Assembly: GCA_016715895.1 (NCBI GenBank)
Contig: JADJXH010000004.1
Span: 356,712-420,711, forward strand
Origin: Flavobacteriales bacterium
Lineage (GTDB): Bacteria > Bacteroidota > Bacteroidia > Flavobacteriales_F > PHOS-HE28
Length of the DNA: 64,000 bases
Reading direction: 5' to 3'
Below, one piece after another: positions 663 through 61,894 of this stretch; within the stretch, counting starts at the first letter, position 1; each line of letters starts with the position of its first letter. A program made the translations under genes and the position numbers. The notes below the pieces were generated by a model. It did not search any database. It saw nothing but the letters and a program-made list of their open reading frames with translations, and was not told where the DNA came from.

Positions 663-834
663 GAGTTTGGGCGTGCCCCCTCGCAAAAGCCTCGGGGTCG
701 CGCTTTTCGCTGCTACTCCTCGCTCCTTCGTCGCTGCGGGGTATTCGCTTCAATCGCTCACGCAACCGTCCCGAATGATGTTCGCCACCATTTCAAAGAT
801 GCGCAGTACCTTGCCACAACAAACACCATTGCCC

Positions 835-9561: not shown

Positions 9562-11456
9562 GCCCGGACGTTCTTGCCCTGGCGCCAGTTGATGAAGGCC
9601 CGCAGGGCCACGCGGTCGCCGCCGGGCGTGGGGTAGTCGCCGGTGAAGTACCAGTCGCCCAGATGCCCCGGACAGGCCGCATGAAGGCCCTCGATGGTCT
9701 GGAACAGGATGCGCACCTCGGCGTTGATCCCCGGTGGGGTGAGCAGCTCGGTGATCTTGGCGCTGATGCGGTCGGCGCTGAAGGGGCGGTAGATGTCCTT
9801 CACATGGTTCACCATGCTGCCGAGCGGCTTGTCCACGTCGGCCATGCAGCGCTCGTACACATCGTCGATGATGTTCTCCTGCTTGGTCTCCTTCAGCAGG
9901 GCGATGGCCGCCTGGAAGGCCACGAGGTCGCCCAGCTTGGCCATGTCGATCCCGTAGCAATCGGGGTAGCGGATCTGCGGGGCGCTGCTGGCCACCACGA
10001 TGCGCCGCGGACCAAGCCGGTCCAGCATGCGCAGGATGCTCTGCCGCAGGGTGGTGCCGCGCACGATGCTGTCGTCCAGCACCACTAGGCTGTCCACCCC
10101 GGGGCGCACGGTGCCGTAGGTGATGTCGTACACGTGCGCCACGAGGTCGTCGCGGGTGTCATCGCCGGTGATGAAGGTGCGCAGTTTCGCGTCCTTGATG
10201 GCCACCTTCTCCATGCGGGGCCGCAGGGCGAGGATGCGGGCCAGCGCGTCGGGATCGGGTGCGGGGCCGAGCTCCAGGATGCGGCGCGCCTTGATGCGGT
10301 CCAGTTCGTCCTCCAACCCCCGGACCATGCCGAAGCAGGCCACTTCGGCGGTGTTGGGGATGAAGGAGAGCACGGTGTGCTCCAGGTCGTGGTCCACAGC
10401 CTCCAGGATCGCCGGGCACAGCGAGCGGCCCAGGGCGATCCGTTCCTGATACACATCGCGGTCGCTCCCGCGGCTGAAGTAGATCCGCTCGAAGGAGCAC
10501 GAGCGTTTCTCGCGGGGCTCCCGCACCAGGTGCTCGCCGTAGCTGCCGTCCTTGCGGATGATGAGGGCGTGCCCGGGGGTGAGCTCATGCACGGCCTCGG
10601 TGGGCACATGGAACGCGGTCTGGATGGCGGGGCGTTCGCTGGCCACCACCACCACGTCCTCGTCGGCGTACCAGAACGCGGGGCGGATGCCGTTGGGATC
10701 GCGCAGCACGAAGGCATCACCGTGGCCGATCATGCCGGCCAGGGCATAGCCGCCGTCGAAGTCCAGCGCGCTGTTCACCAGGATCTGCCGCACATCGAGC
10801 TTCTCGGCGACCACCTGCGTGATCTGCCGGTCGTTGTACCCCAACTGCCGGTGGATCTGCGCGATGCGGTCGTTCTCGACGTCGAGGAAGTGACCGATCT
10901 TCTCCAGCACCGTCATGGTGTCGCTGCGCTCCTTGGGGTGCTGGCCGATGCTGACGAGCAGGTTGAACAGCTCGTCCACATTGGTCATGTTGAAGTTGCC
11001 GGCCACCACCAGGTTGCGCGTGATCCAGTTGTTGAGGCGGCGGCGGGGATGGCAGTTCTCCAGGCTGTCGCGGCCGAAGGTGGCGTACCGCAGATGGCCC
11101 AGGAGCACCTCGCCCAGGAAGGGCACATGGGCCTTCAGCCATTCGGCGTCATCGGGCCGGGCGCCTGGCAGCCGCAGGGCATCCTCGTGGCCTTTCTGGA
11201 CGCGGCCGAAGATCTTCTGGATGGCCTGCTTGTCAGTGCTGCGCTCGCGGTCGATGTAGGGCGTGCCGGGCAGGGGGTCCAGCTTGATGGACGCCACTCC
11301 CGCACCGTCCTGGCCGCGGTTGTGCTGTTTCTCCATGAGGAGGAACATGCGCTGCAGGCCGAAGAACGGGGTGCCGTGGCGTTCGGCGTAGTGCGCCAGC
11401 GGCTTGCGGAGGCGGATGAGCGCGATGCCGCACTCGTGCTGGAGGACGTCGCTCAT
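9555..11456 (-). CDS. purF: Amidophosphoribosyltransferase (long Bacteroidota form)
   Basis: N-terminal nucleophile MSDVLQHECGIALI (class II glutamine amidotransferase) and PRPP-binding loop VVLDDSIVRGTT. 633 aa. Confidence 0.9.
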   Translation of the reverse strand: MSDVLQHECGIALIRLRKPLAHYAERHGTPFFGLQRMFLLMEKQHNRGQDGAGVASIKLDPLPGTPYIDRERSTDKQAIQKIFGRVQKGHEDALRLPGARPDDAEWLKAHVPFLGEVLLGHLRYATFGRDSLENCHPRRRLNNWITRNLVVAGNFNMTNVDELFNLLVSIGQHPKERSDTMTVLEKIGHFLDVENDRIAQIHRQLGYNDRQITQVVAEKLDVRQILVNSALDFDGGYALAGMIGHGDAFVLRDPNGIRPAFWYADEDVVVVASERPAIQTAFHVPTEAVHELTPGHALIIRKDGSYGEHLVREPREKRSCSFERIYFSRGSDRDVYQERIALGRSLCPAILEAVDHDLEHTVLSFIPNTAEVACFGMVRGLEDELDRIKARRILELGPAPDPDALARILALRPRMEKVAIKDAKLRTFITGDDTRDDLVAHVYDITYGTVRPGVDSLVVLDDSIVRGTTLRQSILRMLDRLGPRRIVVASSAPQIRYPDCYGIDMAKLGDLVAFQAAIALLKETKQENIIDDVYERCMADVDKPLGSMVNHVKDIYRPFSADRISAKITELLTPPGINAEVRILFQTIEGLHAACPGHLGDWYFTGDYPTPGGDRVALRAFINWRQGKNVRAY

Positions 11457-11598
11457 CGGCGGCGGGCCGGCCGGGAGAGGGACCGGACCGCAAAGGTACG
11501 CCGCCCCGTCCGGCCGCTTCCCGTTCCATCGCCTCCCCTACCCGTTCCAAGCAACTTCCGGGGCCCGGGGCCTGTCTACCCAGCGTAATTTCGACGAC

Positions 11599-14500
11599 GT
11601 GCTCCCCGCCCACCGGTCCATCGGCCTGGCCTTCGGCTTGTTGCTCGCCTGCGGCGCGTCGGGTGGCAGCGGGGTCACCTTCACGGAGAACCGCGGCCAG
11701 TGGCCCTCGCAGGTGCTCTATCGGGCCCATATCCCCGGCGGCGCCCTCTTCGTGGAGCGCGGCGCCCTCACGTTCGTGCTGGCGGAAGGCGGTGCCCACC
11801 ACCGCCATGGACATGCCGGGGATGCGCACGACCACGCCGAACAGGACCCGTACAGGGCCCATGCCTACCGGGTGACCTTCGAGGGGGCTTCGGGCGGTGT
11901 GGGTGAGGGCCGACAGGTGCTGGGCCATCGCGAGAACCACTTCATCGGCAACGACCCGGCGCGCTGGGGCGCGGATTGCGGGGTGTTCCGGGAGGTATGG
12001 GTGAAGGACCTGTACCCGGGCATCGACCTGCGGGTGGATGGCAGCAAGGGCCTGAAGTACGACCTGCTTGTCCAGCCCGGCGTCGATCCGGGGCGGATCC
12101 GCATGCGGTACAGCGGCCAGGATGCGCTGGCGCTCGAGCAGGGCCGGCTGGTGGTGCGCACCAGCGCCGGCACTGTGGTGGAAGAGGCTCCCATCGCCTT
12201 CGGACCCGGTGGGGCCATCGCCTGCCGCTACCGGCTGGAGGGTGACCGTCTCGGCTTCGAGCTGCCGGACGGGTACGACGACCACGGCCTGCTGGTCATC
12301 GACCCCACCCTCACCTTCGCCAGCTACTCGGGCAGCACGGCGGACAACTTCGGCTTCACCGCCACCTACGATGCGGCGGGCAACCTGTACGGGGGCGGCA
12401 TCGTGTTCGGCTTCGGCTACCCGGTGACGGTCGGCGCGCTTCAGACCAACCTGTCCGGCGGCACCATCGACGTGGGCATCAGCAAGTGGGACGCCACCGG
12501 CAGCACGTTGTTGTGGAGCACCTACCTCGGCGGTGGGCAGAACGAATCGCCGCACAGCCTGGTGGTGAACGATGCGGGCGAGCTGTTCGTGCTGGGCAGC
12601 ACGGGCTCCAGCGACTTTCCCACCACGGCGGGCTGTTTCGACAACAGCTTCGGTGGAGGCCCCTCGCTCAACTTCACCATCGGCTACGGGTACAACCATT
12701 TCTCCGGCGTTGACGCCTTCGTGGCGCGGTTGAGCGCAGCCGGCAACGCACTGCTGGGGTCCACCTACGTGGGCGGCGCCGGTGCCGATGGCATCAACAA
12801 CGACGGTGCCCTGGCCTACAACTACGGCGATTCGTTCCGCGGCGAGATCGCCCTGGACCCCAATGGGAACCCGGTGGTGGCCACCAGCACCGAAACGACC
12901 GGGCTTCCCGTCACGCCCGGTGCTCCGCAGGCGGCCTTCGGAGGCGGACAACAGGACGGCTATGTGTTCCGGCTCAACGCCCCTCTCACCAATCTGCTCT
13001 GGGCCACCTATGTGGGCGGCACCGGGGACGACAGCGCGTTCGGCGTGCAGTTCGACAGCAATGGCGAGGTCTACGTCACCGGGGGCACCACCAGCACGGA
13101 CCTGCCGATGGCCGGCACCCCGTACGACGCAAGCCACAACGGCAGCGTGGACGGCTACATCATGCGGTACAACGCCACGGGCAACGCCCTTCTGGGCTCC
13201 ACCTACCTGGGCACCGCCGCTTACGACCAGAGCTACTTCGTGCAGCTGGACACGGACGACGAGGTGTACGTGGTAGGTCAGACGAGGGGCAATTACCCGG
13301 TGACGCCCGGCAAGTACGCCAACCCCGGCAGCAGCCAGTTCATCCACAAGTTCAACCATGCGCTCAGTGGCTCGCTGTGGAGCACGCGCATCGGCAATGG
13401 CAGCGGTACGGAGGACATCGCACCATCCGCTTTCCTGGTGAGCGACTGCGGGCAGATCTACTTCTCCGGCTGGGGCGGCGCGGTGAACAACAACGGCGTG
13501 CCGAACACCAGCACCACCACCGGCCTGCCAACCACCCCGGGCGCGTTCCAAACGACCACGGACGGTAGCGACTTCCATCTGATGGTGCTGGAGCCCGATG
13601 CCATCGGTCTCAACTACGCCACCTTCTTCGGCGGCAACCTCAGCTCCGAGCACGTGGACGGCGGCACCAGCCGCTTCGACAAGAACGGCAACGTGTACCA
13701 GGCGGTGTGTGCGGGCTGCGGCGGCAACAGCGACTTCCCCACCACTCCGGGCGCGTGGAGCAACACGAACAACAACCCGAACTGCAACCTAGGCGTGTTC
13801 AAGTTCGCGCTGTCGCAGACCCTGGCGGTGATCGCCATCGACGGCCCGCAGTACGTGTGCCATCCGGGAACCGCGCAGTTCGCCAACCTGAGCAATGGCG
13901 GCAATACCTACACCTGGTACTTCGGCGATGGCGCCACCAGCACCGATTTCGAACCGACGCACGCCTATGGGGCACCGGGCACCTACACGGTGATGATGGT
14001 GCTGGAGGACAGCCTGGACTGCACGCCGCCGGACACGGCCTACGTGACCATCGAGGTGGTGGACCCGCTGGACGCTTCGGTGGACAGTGTGCCGGCGGTA
14101 TGCGCCGGGTCCAGCGTCCAGCTTCAGGCCAGCGGAGGCACCAGCTACCTGTGGAGCCCCGGCACAGGGCTCAACAGCACCACCGTGCCCGACCCGGTAT
14201 GCACCCCGTTGGCCATCACCACCTACCAAGTGCTGGTGACCGACCAATGCGGCACGGACACCGCCTTCGTGGACGTGGTGGTGGACGACCCCTCCGGTTT
14301 CGCCGGGCCCGACGTGGTGATGTGCGCGGGTGATGCGGTGGCCATCAGCGCGAGCGGAGGCGCCACCTACAGCTGGAGCCCGGCCGGCTTCGTGAACGAC
14401 CCCACGAGCCCCACACCGCTGGCCTCCCCGCCGGACACCACGCTCTTCACCATCACCATCGTGACGGCCGATGGTTGCGTGGGCGTGGATTCGGTGCTGG

Positions 14501-15462
14501 TGATCGTGCAGTTCACTCCGCCCGACCCGGTCTCCGCGGACACGGCGGTGTGCGTAGGGGGCAGCGTGCAGCTCCAGGTGAGCGGCGGCGACAGCTATGG
14601 GTGGGTGCCGGCCCCCGGCCTCACCACGCTCACTGTTCCCGATCCGGTGGTGACCCCGCCCACCACCACGGACTACGTGGTGCTGGTGAGCAACACCTGT
14701 GGCACCACGCCGGACACGGTGACCGTGCTGGTGGTGGTGCCGATGGCCGATGCCTGGCCGGACACCCTGGTGTGCCCCAACGCGCCGGTGCCGCTCTTCG
14801 CCAGCGGCGGGGTGAGCTACATCTGGAACCCCGCACAGGGCCTGGACAACGACACCAGCGCCACCCCCATCGCCACGGTGGGAACGCCGACCGTCTTCAC
14901 CGTGATCTCCACGGACGCCTACGGCTGCAGTGACACGGCCCAGGTGTCCATCGACCTGCTGCCACAACCGGTGGTGAACGCGGGCCCCGATATGTCCATC
15001 GATTACGGCGACGCCACCACCCTGGCGGCCACCGGGGAAGGCGCCTTCATGTGGAGCCCGGAGCTCTATGTGGAACAGGCCAACGGCGCGCTGCTCACCG
15101 TGCGACCGGAAACGAGCACGCTGTACACCGTGCAGCTGACGGACCTGAACGGATGCGTGGCCACGGACCAGGTGCTGGTGATCATCGACGGCGCGTTGTA
15201 CGTGCCGAACACCTTCACCCCCAACGAGGACGGGATCAACGACACCTTCTTCGCGCTGGGCAAGGAGATCGACACGTTCCGGATGATGGTGTTCAACCGC
15301 TGGGGCGAAATGATCTTCGAGACGGACGTGCTGACCGGACGCTGGGACGGCACCTACAAGGGGGTGGGCTCACCGATCGACACCTACGTCTGGCGGGTGG
15401 ACTACACCGAACTGAACGGCGAGGACCACATCCTGTACGGGCACGTGAACCTGGTGCGCTAG
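11599..15462 (+). CDS. Large cell-surface adhesin-like protein (beta-propeller/SBBP-like repeats, PKD-like domains) with T9SS type B C-terminal domain
   Basis: 1352-aa ORF. Only in-frame start candidate after the divergent purF gene is the GTG at 11599 (VLPAHRSIGLAFGLLLACGASGG; start uncertain). Repeated ...YLGG.G.D.A/G... beta-propeller-like units. PKD-like segment (YTWYFGDGATSTDFEPTHAYGAPGTYTVMMV). C-terminus YVPNTFTPNEDGINDTF…NRWGEMIFE… is the gliding-motility/CHU-type T9SS CTD. Confidence 0.75.
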   Translation: MLPAHRSIGLAFGLLLACGASGGSGVTFTENRGQWPSQVLYRAHIPGGALFVERGALTFVLAEGGAHHRHGHAGDAHDHAEQDPYRAHAYRVTFEGASGGVGEGRQVLGHRENHFIGNDPARWGADCGVFREVWVKDLYPGIDLRVDGSKGLKYDLLVQPGVDPGRIRMRYSGQDALALEQGRLVVRTSAGTVVEEAPIAFGPGGAIACRYRLEGDRLGFELPDGYDDHGLLVIDPTLTFASYSGSTADNFGFTATYDAAGNLYGGGIVFGFGYPVTVGALQTNLSGGTIDVGISKWDATGSTLLWSTYLGGGQNESPHSLVVNDAGELFVLGSTGSSDFPTTAGCFDNSFGGGPSLNFTIGYGYNHFSGVDAFVARLSAAGNALLGSTYVGGAGADGINNDGALAYNYGDSFRGEIALDPNGNPVVATSTETTGLPVTPGAPQAAFGGGQQDGYVFRLNAPLTNLLWATYVGGTGDDSAFGVQFDSNGEVYVTGGTTSTDLPMAGTPYDASHNGSVDGYIMRYNATGNALLGSTYLGTAAYDQSYFVQLDTDDEVYVVGQTRGNYPVTPGKYANPGSSQFIHKFNHALSGSLWSTRIGNGSGTEDIAPSAFLVSDCGQIYFSGWGGAVNNNGVPNTSTTTGLPTTPGAFQTTTDGSDFHLMVLEPDAIGLNYATFFGGNLSSEHVDGGTSRFDKNGNVYQAVCAGCGGNSDFPTTPGAWSNTNNNPNCNLGVFKFALSQTLAVIAIDGPQYVCHPGTAQFANLSNGGNTYTWYFGDGATSTDFEPTHAYGAPGTYTVMMVLEDSLDCTPPDTAYVTIEVVDPLDASVDSVPAVCAGSSVQLQASGGTSYLWSPGTGLNSTTVPDPVCTPLAITTYQVLVTDQCGTDTAFVDVVVDDPSGFAGPDVVMCAGDAVAISASGGATYSWSPAGFVNDPTSPTPLASPPDTTLFTITIVTADGCVGVDSVLVIVQFTPPDPVSADTAVCVGGSVQLQVSGGDSYGWVPAPGLTTLTVPDPVVTPPTTTDYVVLVSNTCGTTPDTVTVLVVVPMADAWPDTLVCPNAPVPLFASGGVSYIWNPAQGLDNDTSATPIATVGTPTVFTVISTDAYGCSDTAQVSIDLLPQPVVNAGPDMSIDYGDATTLAATGEGAFMWSPELYVEQANGALLTVRPETSTLYTVQLTDLNGCVATDQVLVIIDGALYVPNTFTPNEDGINDTFFALGKEIDTFRMMVFNRWGEMIFETDVLTGRWDGTYKGVGSPIDTYVWRVDYTELNGEDHILYGHVNLVR

Positions 15463-16484
15463 GAGCCTGGCATGAAGCGCTGGCGGGGCAGGTCGAGCCA
15501 GCTCAGCGCGGCACCGCTCAACAGCATCTCCTTGCGGGCATCATCCCAGGGCATGCTGCGGATCAAGGACCCGGGCTCCAGCTCACCGAGGGGGAACGGA
15601 TAGTCGGTGCCCAGGGCCACGCGCTCGGCGCCCAGCATGTCCACGACGAGCTTCAGGATGGCGGGGTCGTGCACCAAGGCGTCGATCCAGAACCGGCCGA
15701 GGTAGTCCTTGGGCGGCACCTGGTTGTCCACCGCGCACAGGTCCGGACGCACCTCGAACCCGTGCTGGATGCGGCCGAGCGTGGCGGGAAAGCTCCCTCC
15801 GCCGTGGGCGAAGGCCACGCGCAGGCGCGGCAAGCGCTCCAGGAGCCCGCTGAAGATCATGGAGGTGATGGCCAGGGTGGTCTCCGCGGGCATGCCCACC
15901 AGCCAGGGAAGCCAGTACTTGTCCATGCGCTCCTTGCCCAGCATGTCCCACGGGTGCACGAACACGGCCATGCCCAGGGCCTCGCACGCCTGAAAGACAT
16001 CCAGGAACCGGGGGTCGCCCAGGTTGATGCCCTCCACATGGGTACCGATCTGGATGCCGCTGAGACCGATCGACCGGCAGCGCTCCAGCTCCTGCACGGC
16101 CAGCGCGCTGTCCTGCATGGGCACCGTGCCCAGGCCCACGAAGCGGTGCGGCCAACGGTCCACGATGCCGGCGATGTGGTCATTGAGGAACACGGAAAGC
16201 TCCAGCGCGTCCTGTGGTCGGGCCCAATAGCTGAACATCACGGGCACCGTGCTCAGCACCTGGGCATGCACGCGGTGGCCGTCGCACTCGTCCAGCCGTA
16301 CCAGGGGATCCCAGCAATTGGCCTGCACCTCCCTGAAGAACTTGTCATCCATCATCATCCGTGCACAGCCCGGGCGGTGATGGTCGAGGTGGATGAAGCC
16401 CTTGTATCCGAAGCGGGCCCCGAAATCGGGGATGTGCTCCGGCAGGATGTGCGTATGGACGTCGATGGCCAGCAGCTCGGCCAT
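15459..16484 (-). CDS. nbaD: 2-amino-3-carboxymuconate-6-semialdehyde decarboxylase (amidohydrolase-2 family)
   Basis: Start MAELLAIDVHTHILPE (metal-binding HxH). Amidohydrolase_2 pattern throughout. Directly follows and translationally overlaps the 3-HAA dioxygenase gene. Confidence 0.85.
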   Translation of the reverse strand: MAELLAIDVHTHILPEHIPDFGARFGYKGFIHLDHHRPGCARMMMDDKFFREVQANCWDPLVRLDECDGHRVHAQVLSTVPVMFSYWARPQDALELSVFLNDHIAGIVDRWPHRFVGLGTVPMQDSALAVQELERCRSIGLSGIQIGTHVEGINLGDPRFLDVFQACEALGMAVFVHPWDMLGKERMDKYWLPWLVGMPAETTLAITSMIFSGLLERLPRLRVAFAHGGGSFPATLGRIQHGFEVRPDLCAVDNQVPPKDYLGRFWIDALVHDPAILKLVVDMLGAERVALGTDYPFPLGELEPGSLIRSMPWDDARKEMLLSGAALSWLDLPRQRFMPGS

Positions 16485-17014
16485 CAGGAGAAGCGCGGAT
16501 CGGTGGCCATCACATGACCGCAATTGCGGCAGGTCCGCAGGGCCTCGTTGCCGTAGAACTCCCGGAAGCGTGGCAGGAAGTCCTTCTCGATGTTGTGCAG
16601 CACGAAGCGGTACTCGTGCAGCAGGGTGTTGCACTTCTCGCAGTACCACTGCAGTCCGTCCTCCAGGGCGCGGTCATCGCGTTTGCACTCGATCACCAGG
16701 CCCACGGTATCGGGACCACGACGCGGTTGATGCGGCACGTTCGCGGGCAGCAGGAACATCTCGCCCTCCCTGATGGGGATGGTGACGGCCTTGCCATCCT
16801 CCTGGATGCCCACCTCGATGTCGCCCTCCAGCTGGTAGAAGAGCTCCTCGGTCTGGTTGAAGTGATAGTCCTTGCGTGCGTTGGGGCCGCCGACGATCAT
16901 CACGATGTAGTCGCCGGCATCGGCGTACAGGTTCTTGTTGCCGACCGGCGGCTTGAGCAGCGCGCGGTTGTCGGCGATCCATTGCTTGAGGTTGAACGGT
17001 CGACGGACGGCCAT
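16484..17014 (-). CDS. nbaC: 3-hydroxyanthranilate 3,4-dioxygenase
   Basis: MAVRRPFNLKQWIADNRALLKPPVGNKNLY…, cupin core …GEMFLLPANVPHQP…, and C-terminal CxxC…CxxC rubredoxin-like site (CEKCNTLL…CRNCGHV). Confidence 0.9.
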   Translation of the reverse strand: MAVRRPFNLKQWIADNRALLKPPVGNKNLYADAGDYIVMIVGGPNARKDYHFNQTEELFYQLEGDIEVGIQEDGKAVTIPIREGEMFLLPANVPHQPRRGPDTVGLVIECKRDDRALEDGLQWYCEKCNTLLHEYRFVLHNIEKDFLPRFREFYGNEALRTCRNCGHVMATDPRFS

Positions 17015-17066
17015 GGCGGTGGAGGGGTTCCGCCGCAAGTTAGGGCCGCTCTGGCGAAGGCCGGCG

Positions 17067-17612
17067 TCAGCGCTCGCGCTTCTCCACGCGACCGGCCATC
17101 AGCAGCAGGGCACCGTTGGTGCGTTGCATGCCCATGGTCCATTCGGGGTCCTGGGCGAACATGCCGGCCTTCTCGTCGTAGCGGATGCGGGCGAAGGGGA
17201 AGTCGAGCTCATCGGTGCTCACGCCGTTGTACTTCGCCTCGGCCAGCATGCCGATGTCCATCACCAGGGGTTCGAAGACCAGATCGTCCGCCGCCTTGGG
17301 GAAGTGCGTGTCGATCTGAACGCGCTTGGGCACGAATCCGGCCTTTCGGAACTCGATGCTGAAGCTCCGGTTCAGGGCCAGGCCCAGGGCGAACCTGCCG
17401 CTCCTGTCCGTGGTGATGGAGCCCACTTGTTCATTCTCCCTGTAGGTGATCACTTCGCAGCCTTCCAGCTTGCTGTCACCGTCGGTGATCCGGCCGGTGA
17501 TCGGCAGCACGACCTCCTCCCCGCCCGATTGAGCGCGGGCCGTTGGGATGGAGAACAGGCCGGCGATCGGGATCAGGAGCGCAACGGCGGAACGGAATGG
17601 TCGGGAACGCAT
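17067..17612 (-). CDS. Hypothetical secreted protein
   Basis: 181 aa. Signal peptide MRSRPFRSAVALLIPIAGLFSIPTARAQ starting at the ATG at 17612. No recognised domain. Confidence 0.55.
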   Translation of the reverse strand: MRSRPFRSAVALLIPIAGLFSIPTARAQSGGEEVVLPITGRITDGDSKLEGCEVITYRENEQVGSITTDRSGRFALGLALNRSFSIEFRKAGFVPKRVQIDTHFPKAADDLVFEPLVMDIGMLAEAKYNGVSTDELDFPFARIRYDEKAGMFAQDPEWTMGMQRTNGALLLMAGRVEKRER

Positions 17613-17667: not shown

Positions 17668-18732
17668 TCAGCGCACCACCCGCCGCACGACGGGAGGCGA
17701 GCCCTCGCTGTCCAGCCGGACCAGGAGGGCACCGCGGGCGACTTCCGGCAGGGTGATGCGGCTTGTGGAACCGGCTGACACCCAGCTTCGGTGCACGGAG
17801 CGGCCCACGGCATCGAGGACGGTGACCCAGGCACCCTGTTGGTCCCTGTCCGGCCCGATGCAAAGGACATCCCCATCCATCCACACGGCACGCTGGCCCA
17901 CCTCCACTCCCTGCACACCCGTGCAGATCTCCACGAAGAGCTCCACGAAGTTGTCGCTGAGCTCCAGGCAGGCCCCATCGCTGGTGAGGTCGCGGATGGA
18001 CAGGCCTGCTTCAAGACCGAACAGTGCCCCGTCCCAGCTCACGGCGTGGATCCGGTAAGCTCCATCACGAAGGGTGTCCGCCTCCAATAGGCCGCCGGGC
18101 AGTTCAGCGACGATGTTGTCGCCATCATCGGTCAGCACGAGGATCACCGGGGAGGTCCCCTGGGAGAAGCTCACGAAGGTCAGCAGGTCGGAGAGCCCGT
18201 CCTTGCAGATGGTCAGGGTGGTGTCGCCCTGGTCCGTCTTCACGATGTTGCCGTCGCAAAGCAACGGGGGCATGGCCGCACTGAGACAGATGCCGAAGGT
18301 GCCGGGGGCACCGAAATCGGTGTTGGTGAAGACCCGGACGCGATAGTTAGTGCCGGGTGTGGTGGGAATGGTGAACTCGAAGAGCGGCCAGACGCCGCAG
18401 ACGAAGGAAGTGGCCAGGCAGCTGTCGGGCATCACCTCGATGCCCCAATCGGTGATGGAACCGGGGACCAGGCGGAGGAAGACCTCGCTGTGGATGTCGC
18501 TGTTGAAGGTGTACCAGACATCGGGGAAGGAGAGTCCGTTGCCATCGCACACCGGCAGGTCACCGCCCCAACTGGCCTGCCCGTTGTCGCCCGGCGTGGC
18601 AAGCAAGGGGCATTCCAGCAGGTCGTTGATGGTCAACGGCTGCGGGAAGGCGCAGCTGTCGTTCGTGGGGATCTGCGCAGCCACGCGCAGCGTGAGGGCG
18701 GCTGCGGCAAGGAGGGTCGGGATGCGGGCCAT
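17668..18732 (-). CDS. T9SS-secreted hypothetical protein (type A CTD), related to the downstream repeat-domain proteins
   Basis: Signal peptide MARIPTLLAAAALTLRVAAQ. Shares the DVWYTF…/Cys-rich module with the 18778..20769 product. C-terminal …RITLPEVARGALLVRLDSEG… CTD-like tail. Confidence 0.7.
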   Translation of the reverse strand: MARIPTLLAAAALTLRVAAQIPTNDSCAFPQPLTINDLLECPLLATPGDNGQASWGGDLPVCDGNGLSFPDVWYTFNSDIHSEVFLRLVPGSITDWGIEVMPDSCLATSFVCGVWPLFEFTIPTTPGTNYRVRVFTNTDFGAPGTFGICLSAAMPPLLCDGNIVKTDQGDTTLTICKDGLSDLLTFVSFSQGTSPVILVLTDDGDNIVAELPGGLLEADTLRDGAYRIHAVSWDGALFGLEAGLSIRDLTSDGACLELSDNFVELFVEICTGVQGVEVGQRAVWMDGDVLCIGPDRDQQGAWVTVLDAVGRSVHRSWVSAGSTSRITLPEVARGALLVRLDSEGSPPVVRRVVR

Positions 18733-18777
18733 GGGGCGGAATAGGACCCGCCAAGGTAGCCGGAAAGGAGGAATGCC

Positions 18778-20769
18778 CTACCGGACGGTGAGCCGCTTCT
18801 GCCAGCTGCCATCGGCCGTCTCACAGCGCAGCACGTACCCGCCCGGCGCCATCCCGGTCAGGTCCAGGCGGCTCACCCCACCGGCCACCAGGCTCCGCTG
18901 CTCCGTCATCACCACCCGACCCATCAGGTCGGTGAGGCTCAGGCGCACGAGGCCGGCAGCGCCCGACCAGCGCAGGTCGGCGAAGCCCTGTGCCGGGTCG
19001 GGGAACACCGCGAAGGGAGCCTCATCGGCGGGGTGGCCCACCGTGGTGGTGATGTCCGCGGCGATGCACAGGCGGAAGTCGCCACCGAGACCGAGGTCCG
19101 TGTTCGTCATCACGCGCACGTAGTACGGTTGGTTCGGGATGGTGGTCACCGTGACGGGGCCTGAAGGGAACTGCACGCAGGCCACCTCGGCGCCGCCGCA
19201 AGCCTCGTACACGGCCATGGACCAGTCGCTCATCGTGAGGTTCTCGAGGGTGACCTCCACCTGGGTGTTGACACCGGGCTCGAAGGTGTACCAGACGTCC
19301 AGGTAGCCATTGGTCGACGAGTCGCAGGACGGATCATCGGTGGACAGGACCGCACCGCTGTTATATCCACCGGTGGAGCTGCCCGGGCAATCCGGAAGCG
19401 GAAGCACCTCGATGTAGGCGGCGTTGGCACAGTCATCGTTCGGCGGGGGGGCCGGGCAGGCGTTGGCCGAAACGGTCAGCACGTAGTCGCCTGAGGAGCC
19501 GCTACCGAAGTTGCCCACGGGGATGTAATAGGTCCCTGGCGCCAGACCCACGAAGGTGATCTCGGCGTTGGTGTCCACGCAGGTGAAGTCCGCCTGCGCG
19601 GTGAACAGCGTCTGGGCGGCCGGACAGCTGGTGGTCAGCGCCGGATAGACCTCATCGAAGGGGGGCGTGGAGCCGCAGTAGGAAATGGTCACGATGGCGC
19701 AGTCGCTCAAGGTGAACGCGTGCCAGACCTTGGGGACGCCATCGTTCAGGAGGCTGGTGATGTCGGCATCGGCCAGCGTGGTGGCACCCGCGTTGTTGCC
19801 CGTGAACGTGAGGGTGCCGCCCAAGGCAAGGGGATCGGCGATGACCGCGGAGCAGAGGTCGTTCGCCGGTGCCGATCCGCCACCCTGTACACAGATGGTG
19901 AAAGTGGGCCCTGCGGGCTGACCGCCGTACCAGTCGTAGACGCGCACGAAGTAGGTGTTCCCGATCGTCAGGTTCGAGAGCACCACGGTCTCGGTGGCCC
20001 CGAGCGCACCTTGATCGCCACAGGCGATGCTCGTCGTGGCGCCACAGGCCCCTTCCAGGACATCGACCACAGGGTTGAAGCCCAGCGATGGCTCCACCAC
20101 CACCGAATGGTCGCTCGAGCTCGCCACGAAGCTGAACCACACATCGTCATTGGCGTCACCGGTGATCCCGGCGCAGGTGATGGCCGGCAGGGATTCCGTG
20201 GCGCCGAGCGTGGTGCCGTTGACAGGTGTGCATCCGGCATCGGGCACCAGCGCGATCGCTCCGCTGCATTCATCGTTCGCCGGGGGCGGGGTGGTGCAGA
20301 CCTGGCCCGTGAACGTCAGCGTGTACGGACCGGTGGAGCCCGGCTCATTGATCACCGGGAAGTAATAAGTGCCTGCAGGCAGGTTGGGGAAGAGGATGGT
20401 GACGTTGCCGTCCCCGCAGGTGACGAACTCGAACACGCCGGTGTTCACGATGTTGGCGATCGGGCACCCGATCACCAGGTTGATGAACGAGTTGGGAAAG
20501 GCCGGGGTGGTGCCGCACAGGTCCACGGTCACATCCATGCACTGGCTCAGGGAGAAGGCCTCCCAAACCTGGGCGGCGCCGAAACCCACCTCGTCGGTGG
20601 ATCCTCCGCTATCGCCGTTGCGCACGGCCGGCACACCGGGGGACAGGGCCACCACGGTGGCGCCGGTGCACAGGTCGTTCACCGGGACACCACCGCCTTG
20701 TGCGAAGAGCTGCGGTGCGTGGGCGGCGAGGAGAGCGGCCAGGGCGGTGAGGGCGGTGCGGTACGGCAT
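18778..20769 (-). CDS. T9SS-secreted tandem-repeat-domain protein (4 x ~130-aa Cys-containing repeats + type A CTD)
   Basis: Signal peptide MPYRTALTALAALLAAHAPQLFAQ. Repeated units with conserved …VWHAF…CG..P…C…GTYY(F/I)PV… C-terminus …GYVLRCETADGSWQKRLTVR. Confidence 0.75.
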   Translation of the reverse strand: MPYRTALTALAALLAAHAPQLFAQGGGVPVNDLCTGATVVALSPGVPAVRNGDSGGSTDEVGFGAAQVWEAFSLSQCMDVTVDLCGTTPAFPNSFINLVIGCPIANIVNTGVFEFVTCGDGNVTILFPNLPAGTYYFPVINEPGSTGPYTLTFTGQVCTTPPPANDECSGAIALVPDAGCTPVNGTTLGATESLPAITCAGITGDANDDVWFSFVASSSDHSVVVEPSLGFNPVVDVLEGACGATTSIACGDQGALGATETVVLSNLTIGNTYFVRVYDWYGGQPAGPTFTICVQGGGSAPANDLCSAVIADPLALGGTLTFTGNNAGATTLADADITSLLNDGVPKVWHAFTLSDCAIVTISYCGSTPPFDEVYPALTTSCPAAQTLFTAQADFTCVDTNAEITFVGLAPGTYYIPVGNFGSGSSGDYVLTVSANACPAPPPNDDCANAAYIEVLPLPDCPGSSTGGYNSGAVLSTDDPSCDSSTNGYLDVWYTFEPGVNTQVEVTLENLTMSDWSMAVYEACGGAEVACVQFPSGPVTVTTIPNQPYYVRVMTNTDLGLGGDFRLCIAADITTTVGHPADEAPFAVFPDPAQGFADLRWSGAAGLVRLSLTDLMGRVVMTEQRSLVAGGVSRLDLTGMAPGGYVLRCETADGSWQKRLTVR

Positions 20770-20787
20770 GGGCGGAAGGAATTCGGG

Positions 20788-22854
20788 TCAGTGGATCACG
20801 AAACGCTGTTCGGTGCGGGCGTGCGGCGTGGTGGCGCGCAGGGTGTAGGCACCGGGTGACAGGCGGTCGAGCTGCAGGCTGTGCGAGGCCCCTTGGGCGA
20901 TGCGGGCACGCTCGGCATGCACGGCACGGCCGGCCATGTCCAGCACTTCCAGGGTGAAGGCCGCGTCAGCCGCCGGATTGCGCACGTTCAGCACACCGGT
21001 GGTCGGGTTGGGGAAGAGGCTCAACGGGGCGGTCTCCATGGCGGCCACGCCCGTGTTGATGCAGTTCACCCCGTCCACGGTGATGGCATAGGGTCCGATG
21101 GCGTTGCTGTTGGCATCGAGCACCACCGGCAGCAGGTAGGTTCCCGCATCGAGCTGGTAGAAGTAGTAGGTGAGGTTCTGGTCGCCGCAGGCCGTGTCAT
21201 TGAAGGTGCTGAAGTACACCACCGAATCCGCCGGGCAGCTGGTGGCCAGGAAACCGAAGGCATTGGTCCACGCGGGGTTCTGTCCGCAATAGCTCACCGT
21301 CACGTCCATGCAGCTGTCGAGGCTGAAGGCATGCCACACCACCGGGGCCAGGCTGAAGGGGCTGCCGCTCACCCAGTCATCGGTGAAGGTGGCACCGGTG
21401 TTGTCACCGGTGAAGGTCAGCGGTGCACCCGGCTCCAGGGCCTCCGGGACCACGTTGGCGCAGTTGTCGTTGGGCGGGGTGTTGCTGCCCTGGCAGGCCA
21501 CGGCCGTCACTTGGATGCTGTAGGGGCCGATGGCGTTGTTGTTGGCGTCACGCACCACGGGCAGCAGATAGGTGCCGGCGGCGAGCTCGTCGAACACATA
21601 GGTGAGGTTGCCATCGCCACAATCGGTGGTGTTGAAGGTGCTGAAGAGCACGATGCTGTCCGCAGGGCAGCCGGTGGCCAGGAAACCGAAGGCATTGGTC
21701 CAGGCCGGGTTCAACCCGCAATAGCTCACGGTCACCGTGGCGCACTCCACGGTGGTGAACATGTGCCACACGACCGGGGCGCCGGCGAAGGGGCTGGTGG
21801 GCACGAAGTCGGCCGTGGGGGTGGCGTTGGTGTTGTCGCCGGCGAAGGTCAGCGTATCGTCCACATTGAGGGCCACCGCGATGGCGTCCGCGCAGAAGTC
21901 GAAGAAGGCCGGAGGCGTGGAACATTCGGTGGCGAGCACATCGATGCTGTACGTGCCCACGGCGTTGTTATTGGCATCCAGCAGCACCGGGACGTAGTAG
22001 GTGCCTGCGGCAAGTTCGGAGTACACATAGGTGCGGTTGCCGTCGGCGCAGGTGGTGTCGTTGAAGGTGCTGAAGAAGACGAGCGAATCGGCCGGGCAGT
22101 CCGTGGCCAGGAAGCCGAAGCTGTTCTCCCACACCGGGTTCTGCCCGCAGTACCGCACTTCCACGGTGGCGCAGGTGGTGGTGGTGAAGGCATGCCACAC
22201 CACCGGAGCACCGGCGAACGGCGAGCCCTGGGCGAAGTCGTTCGTCGCGGTGGCGTTGGTGTTGTCGCCGGTGAAGGTGAGGGTGTCACCGACCGCAAGC
22301 CCCTCTGCCGTCACCTGCCCGCACTGATCGTTGGGCGGGGCCTGCGATCCGCCGCAGGCCTCGGCCGTCACATTGATGACGTACGGACCGAAGGCGCTGC
22401 CGACCGCCGTCCATACCGGAAAGAGGTAGGTACCGGCAGGCAGGTTGTTGAAGCTCACGGTCGGGTTGCCGTCCCCGCAGCTGTTGTACTCATACAATTG
22501 GGTCACGATCAGGGCGTTGGTGGCCGGGCAGCTGGTGGCCAGCACGTTCCAGAAATCCACGAAGACCGACGGCGATCCGCAGTAGTCGATGGTGACATCC
22601 GCACAGGCCGTGGTGGTGAAGGCGTGCCACAGCACGGGGATCCCGAAGCCCTCCAGGACCGAGCCCGGTGCATAGTCACCGGTGATGGTGGCGTTGCTGT
22701 TGTCACCGGTCCATTGAAGGGTGCCACCAATGGCCAGGGGGTCGGCGACCACCTGGGAGCAATCGTCCACCCCCTGGGCGGCGATGCGGCTGATGCCAAA
22801 AAGAGCGACCGCGGCGAACGCGGTGCAGTGGATCAAAGCGGAATGAAGGGTCAT
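20788..22854 (-). CDS. T9SS-secreted tandem-repeat-domain protein, paralog of 18778..20769 (4 repeats + type A CTD)
   Basis: Start ATG at 22854 (MTLHSALIHCTAFAAVALFGISRIAAQ). Four near-identical repeats (TFTGDNTNAT…VVWHAF…YCGQNPAWTNAFGFLAT.CPADS…CGDGNLTY…AAGTYLLPV…NNNAIGPYSI). CTD LSLFPNPTTGVLNV…YTLRATT… The upstream extension in the ORF table (to 23202) is non-coding read-through. Confidence 0.75.
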   Translation of the reverse strand: MTLHSALIHCTAFAAVALFGISRIAAQGVDDCSQVVADPLAIGGTLQWTGDNSNATITGDYAPGSVLEGFGIPVLWHAFTTTACADVTIDYCGSPSVFVDFWNVLATSCPATNALIVTQLYEYNSCGDGNPTVSFNNLPAGTYLFPVWTAVGSAFGPYVINVTAEACGGSQAPPNDQCGQVTAEGLAVGDTLTFTGDNTNATATNDFAQGSPFAGAPVVWHAFTTTTCATVEVRYCGQNPVWENSFGFLATDCPADSLVFFSTFNDTTCADGNRTYVYSELAAGTYYVPVLLDANNNAVGTYSIDVLATECSTPPAFFDFCADAIAVALNVDDTLTFAGDNTNATPTADFVPTSPFAGAPVVWHMFTTVECATVTVSYCGLNPAWTNAFGFLATGCPADSIVLFSTFNTTDCGDGNLTYVFDELAAGTYLLPVVRDANNNAIGPYSIQVTAVACQGSNTPPNDNCANVVPEALEPGAPLTFTGDNTGATFTDDWVSGSPFSLAPVVWHAFSLDSCMDVTVSYCGQNPAWTNAFGFLATSCPADSVVYFSTFNDTACGDQNLTYYFYQLDAGTYLLPVVLDANSNAIGPYAITVDGVNCINTGVAAMETAPLSLFPNPTTGVLNVRNPAADAAFTLEVLDMAGRAVHAERARIAQGASHSLQLDRLSPGAYTLRATTPHARTEQRFVIH

Positions 22855-23003
22855 GCGGTTGGGGTCGATGGGTGACGGGATACCGAGCGCAAAGATGTCC
22901 TCTCCGCGTAAAGCGAAGGTGAACGGGGACGGGTGGTTATCAACATTCGCCCGCGGATGGCGGAAGGTGCCGGCTACCTTTGGCCGCACATGAAGCCCCT
23001 TCC

Positions 23004-23783
23004 ATGATGAACCCCGATCTGCAGGGCCAACGGGCGCTCGTGTGCGGCGCCACGCAGGGGATCGGAAGGGCGGTGGCCATGGCGCTGGCCGCACAGGGGG
23101 CCCGGGTGACGGTGCTCGCGCGCAAGGCCGAGGCGTTGGATCACCTGGTGACCGCGCTGCCGGGTGAGGGCCATCAGGCCCTGCCGGCCGACCTGTCAGC
23201 AACGGCCGAACTCGAGCAGGCGGTGGACCGTGCGCTCGGCGAAGGGTCCTTCACCATCCTGGTGAACAACGCCGGAGGGCCACCACCGGGGCCCGCGCAC
23301 AAAGCGCAGGTCATGGAGTTCGAGCAGGCGATGCGGCTCCATCTGTTCGCGTTCCACACCCTGGTCAGGCGGCTTCTTCCGGGCATGCGCGAGGCCGGCC
23401 ACGGCCGCATCATCAACATCATCAGCACCAGCGTGAAGCAGCCGCTGCCCGACCTGGGGGTGAGCAACACGGTGCGGGCGGCGGTGGCCAACTGGGCCAA
23501 AACGCTGGCGAACGAGCTGGGGCCATGGAACATCACGGTGAACAACGTGCTTCCGGGGGCCACGGCCACCGAGCGTCTCGAGGCCATCATCCGGGCGAAG
23601 GCCGAGCGCACTGGGTCGAGCGAGGAGGAGGTGGCGGCCCATATGCGTGCGGAGATCCCCTTGCGTCGCTTCGCCCTGCCCGAGGAGGTGGCGGCAGCCG
23701 TGGCCTTCCTGGCCGGACCGGGCGGCTCCTACGTCTCGGGGATCAACCTGCCGGTGGATGGCGGGCGCACGGCGAGCCTGTGA
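23004..23783 (+). CDS. SDR-family oxidoreductase (3-oxoacyl-ACP reductase-like)
   Basis: Gly-rich NAD(P)-binding CGATQGIGRAVAMAL near the N-terminus and classical SDR layout. Start may be the ATG at 23004 or 23007. Confidence 0.85.
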   Translation: MMNPDLQGQRALVCGATQGIGRAVAMALAAQGARVTVLARKAEALDHLVTALPGEGHQALPADLSATAELEQAVDRALGEGSFTILVNNAGGPPPGPAHKAQVMEFEQAMRLHLFAFHTLVRRLLPGMREAGHGRIINIISTSVKQPLPDLGVSNTVRAAVANWAKTLANELGPWNITVNNVLPGATATERLEAIIRAKAERTGSSEEEVAAHMRAEIPLRRFALPEEVAAAVAFLAGPGGSYVSGINLPVDGGRTASL

Positions 23784-24503
23784 TCAAGCCTGCTCCCGGG
23801 CGGCCAGGCGGAAGCCCTGACCGTGGATGTTGATGATCTCCACCTCGGGGTCCGCGCGCAGGTGCTTGCGCAGCCTGGCGATGTACACATCCATGCTGCG
23901 GCCATTGAAGTAGTTGTCATCGCCCCAGATCTCCCGCAGGGCCTGCCGACGCTCCAACAGGCCGTTGCGGTGCAGGCACAGCAGGCGCAGCAGTTCGCTC
24001 TCCTTGGTGGTGAGCTTTCGCTCCTCCTCCCCACGCCTCAGCAACTGCTTGCGCACATCGAACGTGTAGCTGCCGATGCTGTGCTGCTGAGGCTGCTCCG
24101 GGCCGAGACCGATGCCCGCACTGCGCCGCAGCACGGCCTGTACGCGCAGCACCAGCTCCTCCATGCTGAAGGGCTTGGTGAGGTAGTCGTCCGCCCCCGC
24201 CTGAAAGCCCTGGATGGTGTCCTGCTTCATGCTCTTGGCGGTGAGGAAGATGATGGGCACCTGGGCATCGGTCCGGCGGATCTCGCGGGCCAGGGTGAAG
24301 CCGTCCTTCACCGGCATCATCACGTCCAGCAGCAGCAGGTCATAGCGGTCCCTGGCCTCCGCGGCGGCACGAAAGGCCTTGAGGCCGGCCTCGCCATCGG
24401 CGCGCAGGTCCACCTCGAATCCTTTCACGCGCAGGTACTCGGCCAGCAGGGCGCCGAGGTTGGGGTCATCCTCGACCACCAGGAGCTTGGGTGTTGGAGC
24501 CAT
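23784..24503 (-). CDS. OmpR-family response regulator (receiver + winged-helix DNA-binding)
   Basis: MAPTPKLLVVEDDPNLGALLAEYL…LLLDVMMPVKDGF…, and C-terminal trans_reg_C (…RSMDVYIARLRKHL…GQGFRL). Confidence 0.9.
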   Translation of the reverse strand: MAPTPKLLVVEDDPNLGALLAEYLRVKGFEVDLRADGEAGLKAFRAAAEARDRYDLLLLDVMMPVKDGFTLAREIRRTDAQVPIIFLTAKSMKQDTIQGFQAGADDYLTKPFSMEELVLRVQAVLRRSAGIGLGPEQPQQHSIGSYTFDVRKQLLRRGEEERKLTTKESELLRLLCLHRNGLLERRQALREIWGDDNYFNGRSMDVYIARLRKHLRADPEVEIINIHGQGFRLAAREQA

Positions 24504-25857
24504 GTTCAAAGGGGAGGGTGATCGTGAAGGTGCTGCCCTGGCCGGGTTCGCTGGCCACCTGGATGCGTCCGCCATGCCGCTGCACCACGGCGCGCACATA
24601 ACTGAGACCGAGGCCGAAGCCCTTCACGTTGTGGACGTTGCCGGTGGGCACCCGGTAGAGCTTCTCGAAGATGCGCCGTTGTTCGGCGCGCGGAATGCCG
24701 ATCCCGTTGTCCTGCACCTCCACGGCGATCCCCTGGTGATCGCTGCGGGTGCGCACCTGGATGCGGGGTTCGCGGGCGGCGTACTTGATGGCGTTGTCGA
24801 TCAGGTTCTGCAGCACGTTGGTCAGGTGGATGCGGTCGCCCTGCAGGCGATGCAGCACGGCCCCGAAGGCCACCTCGATGCCTCCTCCGCGCCGCTCGGC
24901 CTGGATGCGCATGTTGCGCACCACGTCGTCGATCAGCACGTGCAGGTCCAGGTCCACCGGCCGCAGCCGCATCTGCCCGCTGTCCTGCACGGCGCTCTGC
25001 AGCACGTTCTCCACCAGCACCCCGAGGCGCTTGTTCTCCTCGCGGATCATGTTCACGAAGGTGCGCGTCTGCTGTTCGGTGTGCGGCATGGACGGGTCGT
25101 TGAGCGCCTCGCAGGCCAGTGCGATGGTGCTGATGGGGGTCTTCAGCTCGTGGGTGAGGTTGTTCACCAGATCGTTCTTGATGTCGCTGATGCGCTTCTG
25201 CCGATGGACGGTGCGCAGGGTGATGACGAAGACGGCCACGATCACCAGCAGGAAGGCGGCGGACATCAGCAGCATGGGCCGGATGGCGGCACGCACCAGA
25301 CGCTCCTGCCCGGGCAGGAGCACATGCAGACGCAGGCGTGCACCGGGCGCGTCGTTCCGGAAGAGCGGCACGGTATGCGGGGAGCTGACGAGCGCTGCGG
25401 TGTCGGCACCGGGCGAGGCCATCACCACCTGGTCCACGGCATCCAGGATGGCGTGGTCCACAACTCCTGTGATGCCGCGCAGTCGCAGCTCCTCGCCCAG
25501 CAGCGAATCGAGCACCGGGGCGGGCACACGTTCCTCCACGGGACGCACATCGTCCACAGCGATGAGGCCGCGGAGCATGTCGGCCACCACATCGTCCGAC
25601 CCGGTGGGCGCGCCGATCACGGTGAGGCTGTCGGTGGAGCGCAGGCGGTCGAGGCCGCTGTGCGCGCGCAGGCGCTCCAAGGTCTCGAGGCGTTCCAGGC
25701 GCTCGCCCACCGCGATCAGGGCGTTGTCCACGCTGCGGCCCAGCTGCACGTCCTTCAGGTCCATCGACTCACCGATCCACCGCACCTGGATCACCACCAG
25801 GCCCACGAGCGCCAGGGTGATGGCCAGCGTGAGCCCCAGGATCGACCGCTCGTTCAC
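24466..25857 (-). CDS. Sensor histidine kinase (HisKA + HATPase_c), partner of the OmpR-type regulator
   Basis: TM N-terminus. H-box LTHELKTPIS. N/G1/G2 boxes (…NLIDNAIKYA…DNGIGIP…GFGLGLSYV…). 38-nt overlap with the regulator gene in a different frame. Confidence 0.85.
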   Translation of the reverse strand: MNERSILGLTLAITLALVGLVVIQVRWIGESMDLKDVQLGRSVDNALIAVGERLERLETLERLRAHSGLDRLRSTDSLTVIGAPTGSDDVVADMLRGLIAVDDVRPVEERVPAPVLDSLLGEELRLRGITGVVDHAILDAVDQVVMASPGADTAALVSSPHTVPLFRNDAPGARLRLHVLLPGQERLVRAAIRPMLLMSAAFLLVIVAVFVITLRTVHRQKRISDIKNDLVNNLTHELKTPISTIALACEALNDPSMPHTEQQTRTFVNMIREENKRLGVLVENVLQSAVQDSGQMRLRPVDLDLHVLIDDVVRNMRIQAERRGGGIEVAFGAVLHRLQGDRIHLTNVLQNLIDNAIKYAAREPRIQVRTRSDHQGIAVEVQDNGIGIPRAEQRRIFEKLYRVPTGNVHNVKGFGLGLSYVRAVVQRHGGRIQVASEPGQGSTFTITLPFEHGSNTQAPGGRG

Positions 25858-61791: not shown

Positions 61792-61894
61792 GGGTCGGAA
61801 CGATGGACCTTGCAAGGTCCCCGAAGCCGACGCCCGTGGTCCAGCACGATCGGGTGAACGGCCCTCAGGATCGGGTGAACGTCCGAACCCATGC

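Follow-up and report, generated by a model that had tools for sequence, protein, structure and literature searches.

A conserved three-gene cluster of predicted type IX secretion cargo with tandem beta-sandwich modules in an uncultured Flavobacteriales bacterium

Gene layout and module architecture

We analyzed a stretch of 64,000 nt (hereafter the window) from contig JADJXH010000004.1 of GenBank assembly GCA_016715895.1 (positions 356,712 to 420,711 of the forward strand), which belongs to an uncultured, high-GC Flavobacteriales bacterium. The G+C content of the whole window is about 66%, and its source, like the sources of its relatives, is a wastewater or activated-sludge metagenome assembly. 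The subject here is a cluster of three adjacent minus-strand genes, p3 (20788..22854), p2 (18778..20769) and p1 (17668..18732), which the original prediction had read as consecutive paralogs encoding type IX secretion system (T9SS) cargo, built of repeated Cys-containing modules of about 130 aa and prone to recombinational variation. The open reading frame (ORF) listing and BLASTP agreed on the three consecutive paralogous genes, and the description as a cluster of T9SS type A cargo made of such modules, of about 130–140 aa here, held up; the claims about recent duplication and variation did not, as described below. The p1 product was 100% identical to the NCBI entry 'MAG: hypothetical protein IPM49_10220 [Flavobacteriales bacterium]' (MAG, metagenome-assembled genome), while p3 had no exact match on record.

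The genes are closely spaced, with 18 nt from the p3 stop to the p2 start and 45 nt from the p2 stop to the p1 start. A terminator scan found no terminator-like site on the coding strand between them, and the matches that it did return fell within coding sequence or on the opposite strand. A scan for sigma-70 promoters, which does not model Bacteroidota promoters, found none. The trio is conserved and probably co-transcribed. p2 and p3 are covered by two antisense plus-strand ORFs, at 19720-20859 (379 aa) and 20881-22875 (664 aa). Neither had visible support from homology, so that both are consistent with the usual shadow ORFs of high-GC DNA and not with genes.

The three proteins carry one to four six-Cys beta-sandwich modules of about 130–143 aa, which fall into two homologous subtypes, A and B. 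p3 (688 aa) was delineated from the ORF, self-comparison, alignment and purpose-built hidden Markov models (HMMs), and consists of a predicted signal peptide, four A modules and a type A C-terminal domain (CTD). Its length is counted from the Met that opens a signal-peptide-like stretch; a longer ORF extends to a TTG at 23202, which is probably not the true start, because the orthologs are called at 685–691 aa. The signal peptide, read by eye, spans about residues 1–27 (22774..22854) and ends in ISRIAAQ, followed by G. The modules, all defined by alignment, are A1 (22354..22776), A2 (21922..22341), A3 (21493..21921) and A4 (21061..21486), with our own HMM as further evidence for A1, A2 and A4, BLASTP for A2 and an AlphaFold2 model for A3. 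The CTD (20791..21054) scored 43.7 bits with PF18962 (cutoff 27) and 38.2 bits with TIGR04183 (cutoff 23). Of the 25 Cys in p3, 24 lie in the repeats and one in the signal peptide, and the protein is strongly acidic (61 D+E vs 12 K+R).

p2 (663 aa; ORF, HMMs and alignment) has a predicted signal peptide followed by modules in the order A-B-A-B and a type A CTD. The original prediction had four repeats with the VWHAF/CGDGN skeleton in each of the two larger proteins, which is correct for p3; p2 has only two of them, A1 (20296..20691, own HMM and BLASTP to p3 A1) and A2 (19456..19875, alignment and own HMM). The other two are B modules, which correspond to two stretches matching PF23759 (GBD_T9SS_assoc): B1 at 19888..20289, which our own HMM also recovered, and B2 at 19060..19449, which contains the best stretch (residues 444–558, 82.6 bits, cutoff 27). 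The p2 CTD (18781..19044) cleared the TIGR04183 cutoff with 26.1 bits (cutoff 23), while its PF18962 score of 23.5 bits was under the cutoff of 27.

p1 (354 aa; ORF, HMMs and hhalign) is composed of a predicted signal peptide, one B module, a middle domain with four Cys and a divergent type A CTD. Its B module (18277..18672) scored 19.5 bits with PF23759, under the cutoff, and had 35% identity to p2 B2 (E 3e-22), in line with the earlier statement that the third protein shares the DVWYTF-type module; the p1 orthologs and homologs P0130 and P0131 reached 31–44 bits with the same model. The middle domain (17923..18270; residues ~155–270, ~115 aa) has invariant C159, C176, C255 and C270 and was modeled as a beta domain with pLDDT ~80–94. 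No match to it was found among Pfam and NCBIfam models. A homolog search with this domain alone gave one match, a number set by the word-index limit of the search; a local HMM search placed the domain immediately before the CTD in other A- or B-containing proteins (P0237, P0155, P0266, P0156, P0141, P0078 and P0250). The p1 CTD (17671..17922) had no direct Pfam or NCBIfam CTD match and was identified within p1 itself solely by profile-profile comparison with the CTD of the p3 family (hhalign 98.8%, E 1.3e-16); in the homolog P0130, PF18962 scored 38.1 bits at the aligned position. Hence the type A CTD that had been claimed for all three proteins clears curated cutoffs in p3 and p2, and in p1 it is supported by hhalign.

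By eye, each of the three N-termini has a hydrophobic stretch with AAQ or FAQ as its last residues. Such a Gln next to the predicted cleavage would fit the +1 Gln preference reported for Bacteroidota signal peptidase I substrates. In a model of p1 (mean pLDDT 77), three beta domains are joined by low-confidence linkers and residues 1–20 have pLDDT <50. The Pfam/NCBIfam scan detected no catalytic domain in p1–p3. We also considered O-glycosylation through the Bacteroidota sequon D[ST][AILVMT], which occurs 7 times in p3 (3.3 ± 1.7 expected), 0 times in p2 and twice in p1; the idea was dropped because the enrichment was not consistent across the three proteins.

Module families and fold

The A module, of about 140 aa, is characterized by the motifs VWHAF, YCG, CGDGN, AGTY.PV and GPY.I.V. 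Across 37 diverse aligned copies six Cys were invariant, and not the four per repeat counted originally, as were D8, W52, G116 and G132. The B module is of the DVWYTF type and, by its sequence matches, is assigned to PF23759. No Pfam or NCBIfam model reached its cutoff on A, in line with the earlier statement that reading alone allowed no known domain name to be assigned. The PF23759 HMM gave no match to p3 and none to any of the 37 A modules. Sub-cutoff fragments on A came from PPC, Y_Y_Y and DUF2141 and were centered on the 'AGTYY.PV' strand. The PPC model PF04151 (cutoff 25.9 bits) gave 18.9 bits for p3 and 17.0 bits for p2, with a best single-module E of 4.6e-4, and four of the 37 A modules showed such weak matches.

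A direct comparison of the A and B profiles with hhalign gave 94.8% probability (E 4.8e-8, 124 columns), and from this alignment the two subtypes are judged to be homologous. The skeleton common to both is ND.C ... G.N..AT ... VW..F ... C ... C ... GTY..(P/R)V ... G.(Y/F).I. The A module aligns over its full length to the B profile, with the ND.C, VW..F, GTY..PV and G.Y.I motifs in common, and both subtypes co-occur with the type A CTD. However, the six-Cys pattern of A differs from B, only three Cys positions being common by alignment, and A has an extra segment of about 10 residues between its fourth and fifth Cys. Since the PF23759 HMM misses A and the link is seen only between profiles, A is a related but separate, unmodeled family. 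It is best described as an unmodeled sister family of PF23759, itself a family without known function, in the PPC / galactose-binding-like superfamily. A sequence search of the PDB with the A profile gave chance-level matches only (E about 0.8), and literature searches on the family name 'GBD_T9SS_assoc' and on PPC with 'type IX secretion' returned nothing. The relatives are labeled by NCBI as 'T9SS type A sorting domain-containing protein' or 'hypothetical protein'.

The AlphaFold2 model of p3 A3, computed from the 37-sequence alignment, is an all-beta sandwich of ten strands with pLDDT 95 and pTM 0.89. With Foldseek, no PDB entry reached E <= 1e-3, and the best matches had E between 5e-3 and 3e-2 and TM 0.35–0.55. 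They were the ColG collagen-binding domain (CBD; 2o8o, 1nqd, 4hpk) and the PPC domain of Bacillus anthracis collagenase (5sv5; TM 0.55 relative to target), with further matches to the C-terminal, claudin-binding domain of Clostridium perfringens enterotoxin, PliG, CBM35 and CUB. These appear to form a coherent set of beta-sandwich binding modules, and they agree with the sub-threshold PPC sequence matches and with the 'galactose-binding-domain-like' label that Pfam gives PF23759. The PPC- or CUB-like fold that the original prediction had suggested looking for was therefore a good guess, as both are among the A3 matches. The N-terminal ND and the G.Y near the C-terminus are also similar to the PPC consensus. 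PPC domains differ in that they usually follow a peptidase domain and have no six-Cys staple, whereas p1–p3 have no peptidase and their modules are arrayed in tandem ahead of a T9SS CTD. For the whole p1 model, Foldseek returned only generic multi-Ig/FN3 arrays, which were uninformative on the middle domain.

Age of the repeats and proposed function

The similarity among the modules, within and between the genes, far exceeded chance as judged by BLASTP (68% identity and E 5e-66 for p3 A2 vs A3; 39% and E 4e-27 for p3 A1 vs p2 A1). At the amino acid level, p3 A2, A3 and A4 were 61–68% identical among themselves and 43–48% identical to A1; identities were 37–45% between p3 A and p2 A modules and 17–29% between A and B. 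Codon-aligned DNA identity was 67–71% among p3 A2–A4 and 56–58% to A1, with ungapped blocks at 63–74%. Third-codon-position identity among A2–A4 was 56–65%, in comparison with 39–56% for all less closely related pairs of modules, among them the A/B pairs. The longest stretch of DNA that p3 repeats share exactly was 30 nt, and TRF found no tandem array of about 430 nt at the locus. With overall DNA identities of 56–71%, the repeats are modestly similar in nucleotides, less so than had been proposed. The two out-of-frame minus-strand ORFs offered as an example (21066..21263 and 21507..21695) have only their first 10 residues, MPSVSWPPAA, in common and then diverge.

Comparison with orthologs points in the same direction. 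Each p3 module A1–A4 matched the module at the same position in P0003 with 86/88/85/91% identity, as against at most 70% off-position, and in P0008, a more distant ortholog, the same-position identities were 64/71/72/71%. The two orthologs have 84% and 65% overall identity to p3, and their repeats match best by position. Because the p3 repeats are orthologous by position, the duplications predate the split of lineages with only 65% whole-protein identity; together with the third-position values, this contradicts the term 'recently duplicated'. The close relatives comprise about 12 independent assemblies (L001/L010, L002–L009, L017 and L020–L023, some of them partial) with 65–98% identity to p3. 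All of them have the architectures AAAA, ABAB and B, with lengths of 685–691, 662–663 and 351–359 aa, inside a syntenic block of a two-component system, a short-chain dehydrogenase/reductase (SDR), p3, p2, p1, a CarboxypepD_reg-like gene, 3-hydroxyanthranilate 3,4-dioxygenase, an amidohydrolase and a large CHU_C protein. One apparent copy-number variant, a match of 2,763 nt in the relative with 98% identity (L007), was rejected, the tblastn alignment having run on into p2; the gene itself encodes 688 aa and four repeats. Changed architectures were confined to homologs with identities up to 58% (AAAAA in L013, AAA + BAAAB in L015, BABABB in L016, and tandem groups of four to six family genes in L024 and L012). 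By these comparisons, the repeats of the locus appear to be old and stably inherited in this lineage and not a device for recombination-driven variation. p1–p3 are an ordinary, though uncharacterized, protein family that is not rapidly varying.

By its predicted features, the trio belongs to the T9SS type A cargo class, which includes the Porphyromonas gingivalis gingipains: a putative signal peptide, Por_Secre_tail and a Bacteroidota host are shared, and processing by PorU with attachment to anionic lipopolysaccharide (A-LPS) would be expected. It differs from these proteins in having no catalytic or otherwise characterized passenger and in that secretion is predicted from sequence for an uncultured, high-GC host. 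T9SS type A cargo is exported by Sec, folds in the periplasm and is targeted to the T9SS translocon by its CTD; the PorU sortase then removes the CTD, and the cargo is either anchored to A-LPS or released (reviewed in PMC5445135). Segments that contain PPC domains bind collagen or other substrates, and for PPC and CBD modules these are insoluble proteins (PMC6168687, PMC3327674). The reading that we favor, with somewhat more confidence than doubt, is that p1–p3 are T9SS-secreted, stably inherited, non-enzymatic and multivalent surface binding proteins made of old PPC/GBD-type modules. They would pass the inner membrane via Sec and fold in the periplasm, where the six Cys of each module would form three stabilizing disulfides. 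The T9SS would then carry them across the outer membrane, directed by the CTD, and a PorU-type sortase would cut off the CTD and attach the proteins to anionic lipopolysaccharide. On the cell surface, the strings of modules would serve as multivalent adhesins or polymer-capture proteins, and the tandem arrays and three paralogs could provide multivalent or multi-specific adhesion in flocs. By analogy with PPC/CBD modules, the ligand may be a polymer, a glycan or a protein. A candidate for a metal or ligand site, perhaps comparable to the Ca2+ site of the ColG CBD, is given by the conserved motifs ND and G(D/N)N..A(T/S).

Several points weigh against this reading. Binding is argued from the fold class and the absence of enzymatic domains, and PF23759 and the A module are both experimentally uncharacterized. 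Foldseek matched the fold to PDB entries only weakly (E ~5e-3, TM 0.35–0.55), and all PPC sequence scores lie below the curated cutoff. The signal peptides are by-eye calls, co-transcription of the trio is deduced from spacing and synteny, and surface anchoring and release into the medium cannot be told apart from sequence. Release is indeed the basis of one alternative, in which soluble proteins would coat or capture insoluble polymers or cells in sludge flocs, for example as helpers of separately encoded hydrolases. It would suit the origin of the source and its relatives in wastewater and activated sludge, the tendency of PPC and CBM-like folds to bind insoluble substrates, and the fact that type A cargo may be either released or anchored (PMC5445135). 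However, no hydrolase gene linked to the cluster was found, nothing in the evidence separates release from anchoring, and we regard this alternative as unlikely, if still worth considering. A purely structural role seems less likely again: disulfide-stapled modules could act as rigid spacers without a specific ligand, in the manner of the electron-dense layer of CTD proteins, and in P. gingivalis a surface layer is indeed built from CTD proteins (PMC5445135). Many of the invariant residues are Cys, Gly and core aromatics and not an obvious ligand site, and the p1 model matched only generic arrays of Ig-like domains. Yet spacers would be expected to present a terminal 'functional' domain, which is lacking here, and the ND and G(D/N)N..A(T/S) motifs common to A and B suggest a functional and possibly metal-binding site.

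The remaining alternative is the one originally proposed, a contingency-type locus in which near-identical repeats recombine to give length or antigenic variants of surface proteins. p1–p3 are repetitive and probably surface-exposed, and like Bap/Sdr-type or contingency-type adhesins they are built of tandem beta-sandwich units. Some distant family members do have near-identical DNA repeats, in arrays of 429 nt x 4.9 copies (95% matches) and 432 nt x 3.8 copies (86%), at least 80% identical internal repeats occur in 24% of 122 homologs, and copy number in the family ranges from 1 to 9. At the locus itself, by contrast, the repeats are too diverged, with the low DNA identity, the short exact matches and the missing array given above; they are orthologous by position, and module number, module order and gene length are unchanged across about 12 assemblies whose identities range between 65% and 98%. 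The contingency reading is thus largely refuted for this lineage, and we consider it very improbable here. The idea of repeat variation finds no support at this locus and holds for some distant homologs (arrays of 429–432 nt with 86–95% DNA identity). Of the outcome that had been named as counting against the proposal, a well-characterized domain with invariant copy number, half was found: copy number is invariant among close relatives, and the B module belongs to a named Pfam family, yet one that is functionally uncharacterized.

The wider family and the genomic neighborhood

An A profile search of a library of 1.84 billion representatives, clustered at 50% identity, retrieved 1,905 clusters at E <= 1e-3 and 904 at E <= 1e-10. 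The named members of the A family are Flavobacteriales MAGs. Family proteins have 1–9 module copies and reach about 2,160 aa; four A modules occur in 72 of the best 120 p3 homologs, five in 19 and three in 12, the remainder being mixed A/B. A scan of seven long members found GEVED, TSP_3, PF23759 and Por_Secre_tail as partner domains and no catalytic domain. Two Flavobacteriales MAGs at a greater distance show an expansion of the family, with four to six genes in tandem whose modules are shuffled in order: A, AB, BAB, AB, AAAA and BAAB at L012:100-10800, and BAB, AB, AAAAA and BAAAB at L024:1500-10100.

Among the 122 homologs, 8% have intra-protein repeats that are at least 90% identical. The two DNA arrays mentioned above lie in distant p3 homologs, P0064 (L018:6136-8225), in which one repeat pair is 100% identical in protein, and P0114 (L019:6181-7818). 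These arrays and the high intra-protein identities indicate that recent amplification or gene conversion (homogenization) occurs in the family, and not in the lineage of the window, with an assembly artifact possible for both L018 and L019. The family as a whole evolves by episodic module amplification and shuffling. A bolder version, which we offer tentatively and think rather doubtful, is that A is a distinct, unnamed and disulfide-stapled PPC/GBD offshoot whose arrays arise in lineage-specific bursts of amplification or gene conversion and stay frozen for long periods elsewhere. Should this be true, and should the bursts follow changing pressure from a ligand or a predator (phage or protist), environmental Bacteroidota would have in this family a diversifying system of adhesins or receptors, of which the present locus would be a quiescent example.

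Among the surface and secreted proteins of environmental Bacteroidota, T9SS cargo accounts for a large share, and most of it has no annotation beyond 'T9SS type A sorting domain-containing protein'. The definition of the A module and its link to PF23759 and PPC provide an annotation handle on a sizeable unmodeled family in wastewater Flavobacteriales. The attractive reading of rapid antigenic variation is corrected for this locus, and L018 and L019 are family members with apparently real recent repeat amplification that are open to study. No long-standing question is resolved by these results, which would not surprise a specialist, and the function given to p1–p3 is deduced.

Several neighbors of the cluster are conserved with it. 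About 55 nt after p1 and in the same orientation as p1–p3 lies a gene for a CarboxypepD_reg-like protein of 181 aa with a signal peptide (17067..17612, minus strand; ORF and synteny), which keeps its position in all relatives and may be part of the p1–p3 transcription unit. Directly downstream and co-oriented are the genes for 3-hydroxyanthranilate 3,4-dioxygenase (16484-17038, minus strand) and an Amidohydro_2 / ACMSD-like protein (15459-16649, minus strand); their synteny is kept in all close relatives, so that kynurenine-pathway genes are paired with surface-protein genes. On the other side, an SDR gene (22980-23783, plus strand) diverges from p3, and beyond it are an OmpR-type response regulator (23784-24599, minus strand) and a histidine kinase (24466-25857, minus strand). 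Every relative keeps these three in synteny with the cluster, and a regulatory link is possible.

The plus-strand ORF at 11404-15462, which converges on the downstream neighbors of the cluster, encodes 1,352 aa from a TTG (orthologs 1,330–1,349 aa); its ortholog in L001 has DUF7948, SBBP (faint), PKD and a CHU_C (T9SS type B) C-terminal domain. With this CHU_C protein beside p1–p3, the neighborhood abounds in T9SS cargo, with CTDs of type A as well as type B. Three more ORFs of the window matched the type A CTD profile of the p3 family, at 667-2055 (plus strand, E 3e-15), 37527-38579 (plus strand, E 3e-6) and 58087-61815 (minus strand, E 2e-9), and none of them contains A or B modules. Elsewhere, the segment 36001-42000 stands out in the window by a strongly positive GC skew of 0.11–0.17, and its G+C content reaches 74% at 40–42 kb.

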